DNA of 64,000 nucleotides from Escherichia coli. Lineage in GTDB: Bacteria > Pseudomonadota > Gammaproteobacteria > Enterobacterales > Enterobacteriaceae. The translations under genes and the position numbers were made by a program. The notes below the pieces were generated by a model. That model ran no database searches, was not told the origin of the DNA, and saw only the letters and a list, made by a program, of their open reading frames with translations. The DNA is taken from the NCBI RefSeq assembly GCF_003334405.1, contig NZ_QOWM01000017.1, one strand, 5' to 3'. Shown here piece after piece: positions 8,332 to 9,397 of the stretch (position 1 is the first letter of the stretch; each line of letters begins with the position of its first letter).

Positions 8332-9397
8332 GTGTTCCCCGCGCCAGCGGGGATAAACCGAACATTAAATTGCCGTGCTGGATGAATCGCGGGTGTTCCC
8401 CGCGCCAGCGGGGATAAACCCTGGATCAGCTGGTTCAATCGTTTACAGCACTGGTGTTCCCCGCGCCAGCGGGGATAAACCGTCGAAAAACTTCGTCCTG
8501 AAAAAATTCATCATGTGTTCCCCGCGCCAGCGGGGATAAACCGGCAGTAAATTATTTGACCTCGTTGATAATCCCGTGTTCCCCGCGCCAGCGGGGATAA
8601 ACCGCCGGTGCAACTGATATTGATAAACGTCGACTCGTGTTCCCCGCGCCAGCGGGGATAAACCGACACCCGACCGCTAACCGATTTCGTTACAGTAGTG
8701 TTCCCCGCGCCAGCGGGGATAAACCGTGTATCACCGAAAGAATGGTTTGACGCGCAGGGTGTTCCCCGCGCCAGCGGGGATAAACCGACGTCTATCATTT
8801 TCAGTACAAGCTGGGTTTTGTGTTCCCCGCGCCAGCGGGGATAAACCGGACGATCCCGAGATTCACAGAGTTACAACTAAGTGTTCCCCGCGCCAGCGGG
8901 GATAAACCGGAAATTTTCACATGGATTGTAGCCCTGTATATGTGTTCCCCGCGCCAGCGGGGATAAACCGGCCAGGCGGTCGGATTAGGTGCAAATCAAA
9001 ATGTGTTCCCCGCGCCAGCGGGGATAAACCGCGCTGGCGGTGCGAGTGCTGGAGGCGCTGAAAGTGTTCCCCGCGCCAGCGGGGATAAACCGCAGGAGAC
9101 GGCCAGCCGGAACGGCGGCGGCGTGTGTTCCCCGCGCCAGCGGGGATAAACCGATTGTTATAATTATTTATTGAAATATCATTCCGTGTTCCCCGCGCCA
9201 GCGGGGATAAACCGAATCTATTGTGAATTTGAAATGGTCCAGCACTGTGTTCCCCGCGCCAGCGGGGATAAACCGGGTAAAAACACGGTCTGAACCGACA
9301 TTCATGTGTGTTCCCCGCGTCAGCGGGGATAAACCGGGCGCACTGGATGCGATGATGGATATCACTTGGAGTTCCCCCGCCCCTGCGGTAGAACTCC
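8332..9397 (+). CRISPR. Type I-E CRISPR array: 18 repeats of 29 bp (17 canonical GTGTTCCCCGCGCCAGCGGGGATAAACCG plus a degenerate terminal repeat) and 17 spacers of 32 bp
   Basis: Exact 61-bp periodicity; repeat starts at 8332, 8393, 8454 ... 9308, 9369; repeat has a CCCCGC/GCGGGG stem; leader-proximal end adjacent to cas2. Confidence 0.98.

Follow-up and report, generated by a model that had tools for sequence, protein, structure and literature searches.

The type I-E CRISPR-Cas systems of Escherichia coli (short palindromic repeats that are clustered and regularly interspaced, with CRISPR-associated genes) include a cas variant, designated cas-EO or cas-E1, that is linked to leader-A and occurs in most I-E-bearing E. 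coli (PMC3737337, PMC3903273), and the cas-E2 system of strain K-12, with leader-T and the repeat GAGTTCCCCGCGCCAGCGGGGATAAACCG. Here we analyze a type I-E locus in a 64,000-nt stretch of E. coli DNA (contig NZ_QOWM01000017.1 of assembly GCF_003334405.1), referred to throughout as the window, in which a CRISPR array with 17 spacers occupies positions 8332–9397. The array is E. coli CRISPR2.1 (also called CRISPR1), of type I-E, and lies between cas2 and iap. We hold with considerable confidence that the locus as a whole is a chromosomal I-E array at the cas2-iap site, of the cas-E1/leader-A kind, whose spacers are an inherited phage record and whose interference activity is predicted to have been lost.

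The closest described counterpart is the cas-E1 (O157:H7-type) system with leader-A and repeat-A (Diez-Villasenor 2013, PMC3737337; Almendros 2014, PMC3903273), with which the window shares the cas2-array-iap site, the divergent cas-E variant, the 29-nt repeat starting with GTG, the 32-nt spacers, the 61-nt period and the preference for the protospacer-adjacent motif (PAM) CWT (equivalent to AWG), with a natural excess of CAT (equivalent to ATG). In that system, too, spacers are shared among strains and arrays vary chiefly through deletion. We observed no difference in kind; what sets the present locus apart is an exact spacer set that is absent from 5426 complete E. coli genomes and an apparently private deletion within cas3. 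The K-12 system belongs to the same subtype and has the same architecture, chromosomal site and CRISPR RNA (crRNA) geometry, but its Cas proteins are strongly divergent, its repeat begins with GAG rather than GTG, and its PAM is AAG only, whereas here it is AWG (PMC3737337). The array is therefore not a new kind of element: it is a real but ordinary textbook feature, for which the type of repeat, the leader, the cas variant, the PAM and the way in which spacers are shared have all been published already.

A regular-expression scan combined with repeat finding recovered 17 repeats of GTGTTCCCCGCGCCAGCGGGGATAAACCG, each 29 nt long, starting at 8332 + 61i (i = 0 to 16) and spanning 8332–9336. Together with their spacers they make 17 repeat-spacer units on the + strand (8332–9368), all of which keep a strict 61-nt period of 29 nt of repeat and 32 nt of spacer, and 17 near-perfect 29-mers in register cannot be chance. 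Fifteen of the repeats are identical; the other two are repeat 2, whose last base is C (8421) where the rest have G, and repeat 17, with a C-to-T change at 9320, in the hairpin loop. An 18th, degenerate repeat on the same strand (9369–9397, GAGTTCCCCCGCCCCTGCGGTAGAACTCC), about 20/29 identical to the consensus with one indel, closes the array, whose limits including this terminal copy are 8332–9397. The predicted RNA fold of the repeat is a hairpin whose stem has 7 bp and whose loop has 4 nt (−15.2 kcal/mol, z = −3.2), and the loop variant of repeat 17 leaves the folding energy unchanged. Every spacer is 32 nt long and unique, with GC contents from 16% (S14) to 78% (S13), and no further copies of the repeat were found on either strand of the 64-kb window. 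A preliminary description, made from the sequence alone, had called this a type I-E array of 17 spacers with its leader on the cas2 side. The repeats, the spacers and the NCBIfam hits to cas genes all agree with that call; its coordinates are the exact array limits including the degenerate terminal repeat, its spacer strings match ours letter for letter in all 17 cases, and the two GC extremes that it singled out are correct.

The genes upstream follow the order cas3-cse1-cse2-cas7-cas5-cas6e-cas1-cas2, then come the leader, the array and, on the minus strand, iap, which NCBIfam also identifies. All eight I-E cas genes, each on the + strand, score above the NCBIfam cut-offs for I-E models: cas3 (259–2376; Cas3 HD and helicase core), cse1/casA (2474–4036; TIGR02547, 610 bits; coordinates by collinearity with E. 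coli N18-04097), cse2/casB (4033–4569; TIGR02548), cas7e/casC (4581–5636; TIGR01869), cas5e/casD (5647–6393; TIGR01868), cas6e/casE, the crRNA endonuclease (6375–7025; TIGR01907), cas1e (7022–7945; TIGR03638) and cas2e (7942–8235; TIGR01873), the starts of cas6e and cas1e being taken from the N18-04097 annotation. The same cas2e-CRISPR-iap order is annotated by RefSeq at the homologous site in thousands of E. coli chromosomes. Because CasA and Cas3 fall far short of the K-12-type equivalogs (111 bits for CasA against PRK09693, with a cut-off of 576, and 388 bits for Cas3 against PRK09694, with a cut-off of 569), these profile scores place the cas genes in the majority non-K-12 variant (cas-E1, also cas-EO). 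The leader (8236–8331, + strand; 96 nt, AT-rich, 26% GC) exactly fills the gap between the end of cas2 (8235) and the first repeat, and is identical in all six related genomes that were fetched; from the cas variant and the PAM we infer that it is of the leader-A type. At its upstream edge, the window begins with the end of an IS421 (IS4-like) transposase gene (1–20), an element found in N18-04097 some 240 bp upstream of cas3, and its position beside the cas3 promoter region may affect cas expression.

Spacer origins were sought in collections of phages, plasmids, E. coli chromosomes and IMG/VR, followed by a local blastn-short comparison of all spacers with the fetched loci. For 13 of the 17 spacers we found matches of 26–32/32 in temperate phages or phage-plasmids of Enterobacteriaceae, compared with a maximum of 24/32 for 204 shuffled spacers searched against the same 197 kb. 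The phage collection alone yielded matches for only S16 (P1/P7), S4 and S13; the plasmid collection added S7, context for S13 and about 100 P1-like phage-plasmids for S16; and most of the sources were found only in E. coli chromosomal prophages and in IMG/VR. The spacers look orphan in phage-database searches because the two prophage families that supply most of them, here called A and B, are barely represented among isolated phages.

Family A combines a lambda-like head module with a P2-like contractile tail and was found in two E. coli strains, GF43 and L26, and in an IMG/VR contig; its only close matches among isolated phages are four partial induced-prophage records, at 90%. It accounts for S4, S5, S6, S7 and S10 (all spacers are given on the + strand). 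S4 (8544–8575) matches the gpW/gp25 baseplate gene, at 30/32 in fetched locus L005 and 29/32 in L006 and L003, with the PAM ATG, and in the phage collection it matched the gpW/gp25 gene of induced E. coli prophages at 29/32. S5 (8605–8636) matches the tail sheath gene on the minus strand of L005 and L006 (31/32, ATG), and S6 (8666–8697) is identical to part of the baseplate J gene (32/32, ATG; L005 20826–20857). The target of S7 (8727–8758) is a region upstream of the terminase genes, at a distance of about 0.8 kb (31/32, ATG, L006 20001–20032; 29/32 in L005), with weaker matches in terminase-small regions of Lelliottia and Klebsiella plasmids. S10 (8910–8941) matches a small minus-strand open reading frame between tail genes of a family A variant (32/32, ATG; IMGVR_UViG_2529293142_000021, 9067–9098), a contig that is 75–81% identical to L005 and L006. 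Two spacers carried by relatives of this strain, x1 (31/32, AAG) and x9 (31/32, ATG), also match family A.

In family B, the portal, terminase, GPO scaffold and capsid genes are of P2 type and the tail module is a different one. The family was found in the E. coli strains 40EC and N1420 and in an IMG/VR contig; it is a common spacer target, yet among isolated phages its closest match (ESSI-2-like) covers 35% of the head module at 68% identity. Six spacers derive from it: S1, S2, S3, S8, S11 and S14. Tail protein genes are matched by S1 (8361–8392; 30/32, ATG, in N1420, L008 30249–30280, and 26/32 in 40EC) and S11 (8971–9002; 27/32, with ACG upstream, in N1420, L008 32088–32119), the GPO capsid scaffold gene by S2 (8422–8453; 31/32, AGT upstream, N1420, L008 20001–20032) and the gene for the terminase large subunit by S8 (8788–8819; 32/32, ATG, 40EC, L007 20001–20032, and the same in four other genomes). 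The remaining two are intergenic: S3 (8483–8514) near sfsB (27/32, AAG; 40EC, L007 17773–17804, minus strand), and S14 (9154–9185) in AT-rich DNA at the right end (32/32, ATG; IMGVR_UViG_3300012155_000058 and 40EC, L020 1493–1524), just inside the right 20-bp attachment (att) repeat. In 40EC the family B prophage is about 33.6 kb long (~2056605–2090196) and sits between mipA and yeaE, bounded by the 20-bp att repeats AGGGCGTCACGCCCTGTTTT.

Two further spacers lead to other elements. S13 (9093–9124) matches a Mu-like DUF935 (portal) gene, at 28/32 with ATG in Klebsiella phage Kp4866-3 and at 27/29 in DUF935 genes of Klebsiella plasmids. S16 (9276–9307) matches upf94.2 of the P1/P7 phage-plasmids, an lxr homologue annotated as 'DNA-binding protein', at 32/32 in P7, where CTG stands upstream; it is also matched at 32/32 in Salmonella phage SJ46, some P1 isolates and about 100 P1-like plasmids, and at 28/32 in P1 lxr. 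S16 and two other spacers of this lineage appear in a published CRISPR-typing table (PMC8868466), which lists S16 as a CRISPR1 spacer. Judged by these matches, we show that the spacers form an inherited record of encounters with temperate phages, the sources being two prophage families of E. coli, one Mu-like phage and the P1/P7 phage-plasmids, and that they were captured mostly beside ATG. The preliminary description had left all 17 spacers as of unknown origin, which no longer applies to these 13 and still applies to S9, S12, S15 and S17. It had also suggested mixed sources on the grounds of base composition; at least four phage families are indeed represented, but composition is a poor guide to them, since the AT-rich S14 comes from the same family as S1, S2, S8 and S11, and only the GC-rich S13 marks a distinct (Mu-like) source.

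The four untraced spacers reached 20–22/32 against the fetched loci, the level of the null control. Array copies were the only matches to S9 (8849–8880), S15 (9215–9246) and S17, the trailer-end anchor (9337–9368), and S12 (9032–9063) gave only weak, chance-level matches in GC-rich plasmids. Pattern scans of IMG/VR for all four, with a 16-nt exact core and purine/pyrimidine-degenerate flanks, found no match, nor did a second pattern design for S15 and S17; a metagenome scan for S9 returned E. coli CRISPR arrays only, and a GTDB genome scan for S12 returned nothing. These scans tolerate only transitions outside the core, so that diverged protospacers could escape them. The GTDB scan for S17 matched only an array of Escherichia type, on a contig that had been binned as Bacillota. 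This 4.5-kb contig (JAEWTL010000035.1, 'MAG: Bacillota bacterium', a metagenome-assembled genome) has the array, of I-E type with 30 repeats and a variant of S17, together with the iap-side trailer, and it is almost certainly a mis-binned Escherichia contig; the T variant of the repeat-17 type fills most of the older half of its array, and some of its repeats end in C and T, as repeat 2 here ends in C. Plasmids of Streptomonospora, Cupriavidus, Azospirillum and Deinococcus gave weak matches to S12 and S13, as did a Rickettsia plasmid for S14, and all of these were set aside as chance (E about 8, no phage context).

With the spacers read on the + strand, the trinucleotide immediately 5′ of the best protospacer is ATG in nine of the 13 cases and AAG in one, its last base being the same as that of the repeat. 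This is the AWG pattern published for this cas variant (PMC3737337), in which natural leader-A spacers give a CWT motif with CAT (= ATG) in 34/55 and CTT (= AAG) in 9/55, and not the AAG that the preliminary description had expected, which is the K-12 rule. The PAM stands 5′ of the protospacers in this reading direction, and the leader-first orientation is therefore independently confirmed. The exceptions to AWG are S2, S11 and S16, whose matches are diverged or present-day homologues. For S2, the homologue has GCAAGT upstream, placing an AAG at −4 to −2, and S2 is the sole spacer preceded by a repeat ending in C. It resembles a spacer capture that 'slipped' by +1, so that the last repeat base would not be the G of the PAM, a suggestion drawn from a homologue that has T rather than C at −1.

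To trace the history of the array we turned to other E. coli. A whole-array megablast was dominated by the repeats and gave a best full-length identity of only 84%, and it was replaced by spacer-only queries, with the spacers joined by runs of N, against the 5426 complete genomes. At least one of the 17 spacers is present in 3947 of these and none carries an identical array. The nearest, in N18-04097 (NZ_CP047277.1), holds 16/17 spacers at 100% identity and in the same order, followed by strains with 15, 14, 13 and fewer. It has an extra spacer, x1, between S2 and S3, lacks S13, shares the repeat-2 (…CCC) and repeat-17 (loop T) variants and the leader, and has an intact cas3 (899 aa). The flanking window sequence from 17357 to 64000 is 99.985% identical between the two strains, with six mismatches and one indel over 46.6 kb. 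The suggestion in the preliminary description that the spacer set serves as a strain fingerprint holds well, given that even this relative differs.

We compared seven arrays (the window, N18-04097, 1303, EC26, SHP24, Res13-ER02-39 and NCTC9041). All seven have S1 S2 (x1) S3 S4 at the leader end and S15 S16 S17 at the trailer end, S14 is kept in six, and the repeat-2 C and repeat-17 T variants are common to all; the sole differences are in which internal units have been lost. The union of the seven implies an ancestral array of some 34 or more spacers. On this comparison, no leader-end spacer has been gained since the common ancestor of the seven strains, the changes being internal deletions only. 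We also considered whether primed adaptation had produced the runs of spacers that come from one prophage; the strand bias is only about 9/13, and spacers from families A and B are interleaved, a pattern indistinguishable from repeated independent encounters.

The second feature that distinguishes this locus is its cas3. The gene encodes 705 aa, in alignment with the intact 899 aa of N18-04097; residues 1–664 are the same bar one substitution, residues 665–858 (194 residues) are gone, and the last 41 aa follow in frame. The lesion is an in-frame 582-bp deletion with its junction at about 2246–2254, where the protein runs from LIQR directly into EAFRLW, compared with LIQRAGRLQRH in the intact version, and where the DNA shows a GAG microhomology. 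Both motif VI of the superfamily 2 (SF2) helicase (QRAGRLQR) and the greater part of the C-terminal region are lost, and the NCBIfam match to the helicase core ends at profile position 312 of 358. The best 40 of 2503 complete E. coli genomes matching the junction region all have the intact 983-bp version, and the deletion appears to be strain-private, or else an assembly error. Without motif VI, Cas3 should be incapable of ATP-dependent unwinding, which would put an end to both interference and primed adaptation, and interference is probably dead here. The other cas genes are full length and collinear with N18-04097, and Cascade, Cas6e and Cas1-Cas2 look intact, so the eight-gene I-E set, its cas3 lacking residues 665–858, is complete in gene content and probably not in function. 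In E. coli 1303 and EC26, which have closely related arrays, a truncated cas3 is fused directly to cas2e, and the Cascade genes and cas1 are deleted. This fusion would represent an independent decay of the same operon and, because both strains are without Cascade and cas1, decay of the cas operon recurs in the lineage.

By homology to characterized I-E systems, the working cycle of such a locus can be outlined. The + strand would be transcribed from the AT-rich leader into a pre-crRNA, which Cas6e would cleave at the 3′ base of each repeat hairpin, giving 61-nt crRNAs composed of the handle ATAAACCG, a 32-nt spacer and a 21-nt hairpin handle. Cascade would then search DNA for sites where a spacer match follows an AWG PAM, upon which Cas3 would degrade the target. 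In this strain, target degradation and primed adaptation are predicted to be lost through the cas3 deletion, and in practice the array would be a fossil memory and typing marker and not a working defence.

That the repeats might be some other tandem or interspersed repeat has, in our judgment, virtually no probability. Rfam gave no family match at the gathering threshold in 7000–11000, a result that is uninformative for CRISPR repeats, and the idea is already refuted by the exact 29-nt hairpin repeats with unique 32-nt spacers, the adjoining cas1-cas2 and Cascade genes, the fact that RefSeq annotates 'CRISPR' at this site in thousands of genomes, and the phage protospacers with a PAM alongside. 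Several observations weigh against the favored reading of a cas-E1/leader-A phage record with lost interference. No protospacer for S9, S12, S15 or S17 was found in E. coli genomes, phages or plasmids, leaving four sources missing; S2, S11 and S16 have AGT, ACG and CTG in place of AWG in their present-day homologues; no consensus sigma-70 site came up in the leader in a simple promoter scan, whose sole match lies inside spacer 14; the cas3 deletion could be an assembly error; and the truncated Cas3 might keep residual activity. If the short Cas3 were functional or the deletion artefactual, the locus could be fully working and exclude families A and B, Mu-like phages and P1-like plasmids, which we think unlikely. 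Such a locus would accord with the intact Cascade genes, cas6e, cas1 and cas2, all collinear with N18-04097, with the perfect 32/32 matches of S6, S8, S10 and S14 beside an ATG PAM in circulating prophages, and with the absence of array copies of S8 or S4 from the genomes listed as carrying their targets. The deletion, however, removes motif VI and 194 residues, and only a GAG microhomology marks its junction, as is typical of a genuine deletion. The lineage shows no leader-end acquisitions either, the loss of the Cascade genes in 1303 and EC26 speaks against selection for function, and in published work cas had to be overexpressed for activity to be seen in E. coli (PMC3737337).

It is also conceivable that the damage to Cas3 was itself of use. 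With Cas3 crippled and Cascade intact, the array could act as a silencer of prophage or plasmid genes in the manner of CRISPR interference (CRISPRi), or allow the cell to tolerate lysogens that would otherwise be killed, cas3 loss possibly having been selected as a relief from self-targeting. We rate this as very improbable, and give the same slight weight to the more specific proposal that the strain-private loss of cas3 was a selected escape from autoimmunity after lysogeny by a targeted prophage family, leaving a Cascade-only silencer. The silencer idea draws on the facts that cas3 alone is damaged, in frame, with the Cascade genes intact, that the targets are temperate elements able to reside in the same cell, and that the near-clonal N18-04097, with its intact cas3, has no protospacer outside its own array. 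A scan of the 64-kb window for self-targets with up to six mismatches nevertheless found none, and these facts are accounted for more simply by a silent system decaying neutrally, cas losses being recurrent in the relatives.

Elsewhere in the window, rpoS (19486–20478) has a premature TAG at codon 217 (GAG to TAG; T at 20134, stop 20134–20136). In N18-04097 the G corresponding to window position 20117 is missing from rpoS, and the annotation marks the gene as frameshifted; the two strains, near-identical in background, seem to carry rpoS null alleles of independent origin. Two short tandem repeats with a 24-nt period, found by Tandem Repeats Finder (TRF) at 18482–18546 and 24588–24634, lie inside nlpD and otnK, respectively, by collinearity with N18-04097.

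The assignments of spacers to prophages and the cas3 lesion are incremental, strain-level details. Within these bounds, the array is a high-resolution typing marker, able to tell this strain apart from a relative whose flanking 46.6 kb is 99.985% identical, and it shows the historic I-E targets of the lineage to have been mainly two temperate prophage families that are scarce among isolated phages. The decay of cas genes and the lack of new leader-end spacers fit the published view that E. coli I-E arrays are rarely updated and often silent memories, and the cas3 deletion described here, together with the Cascade deletions in relatives, would add a further example of E. coli I-E systems as decaying, rarely updated memories.

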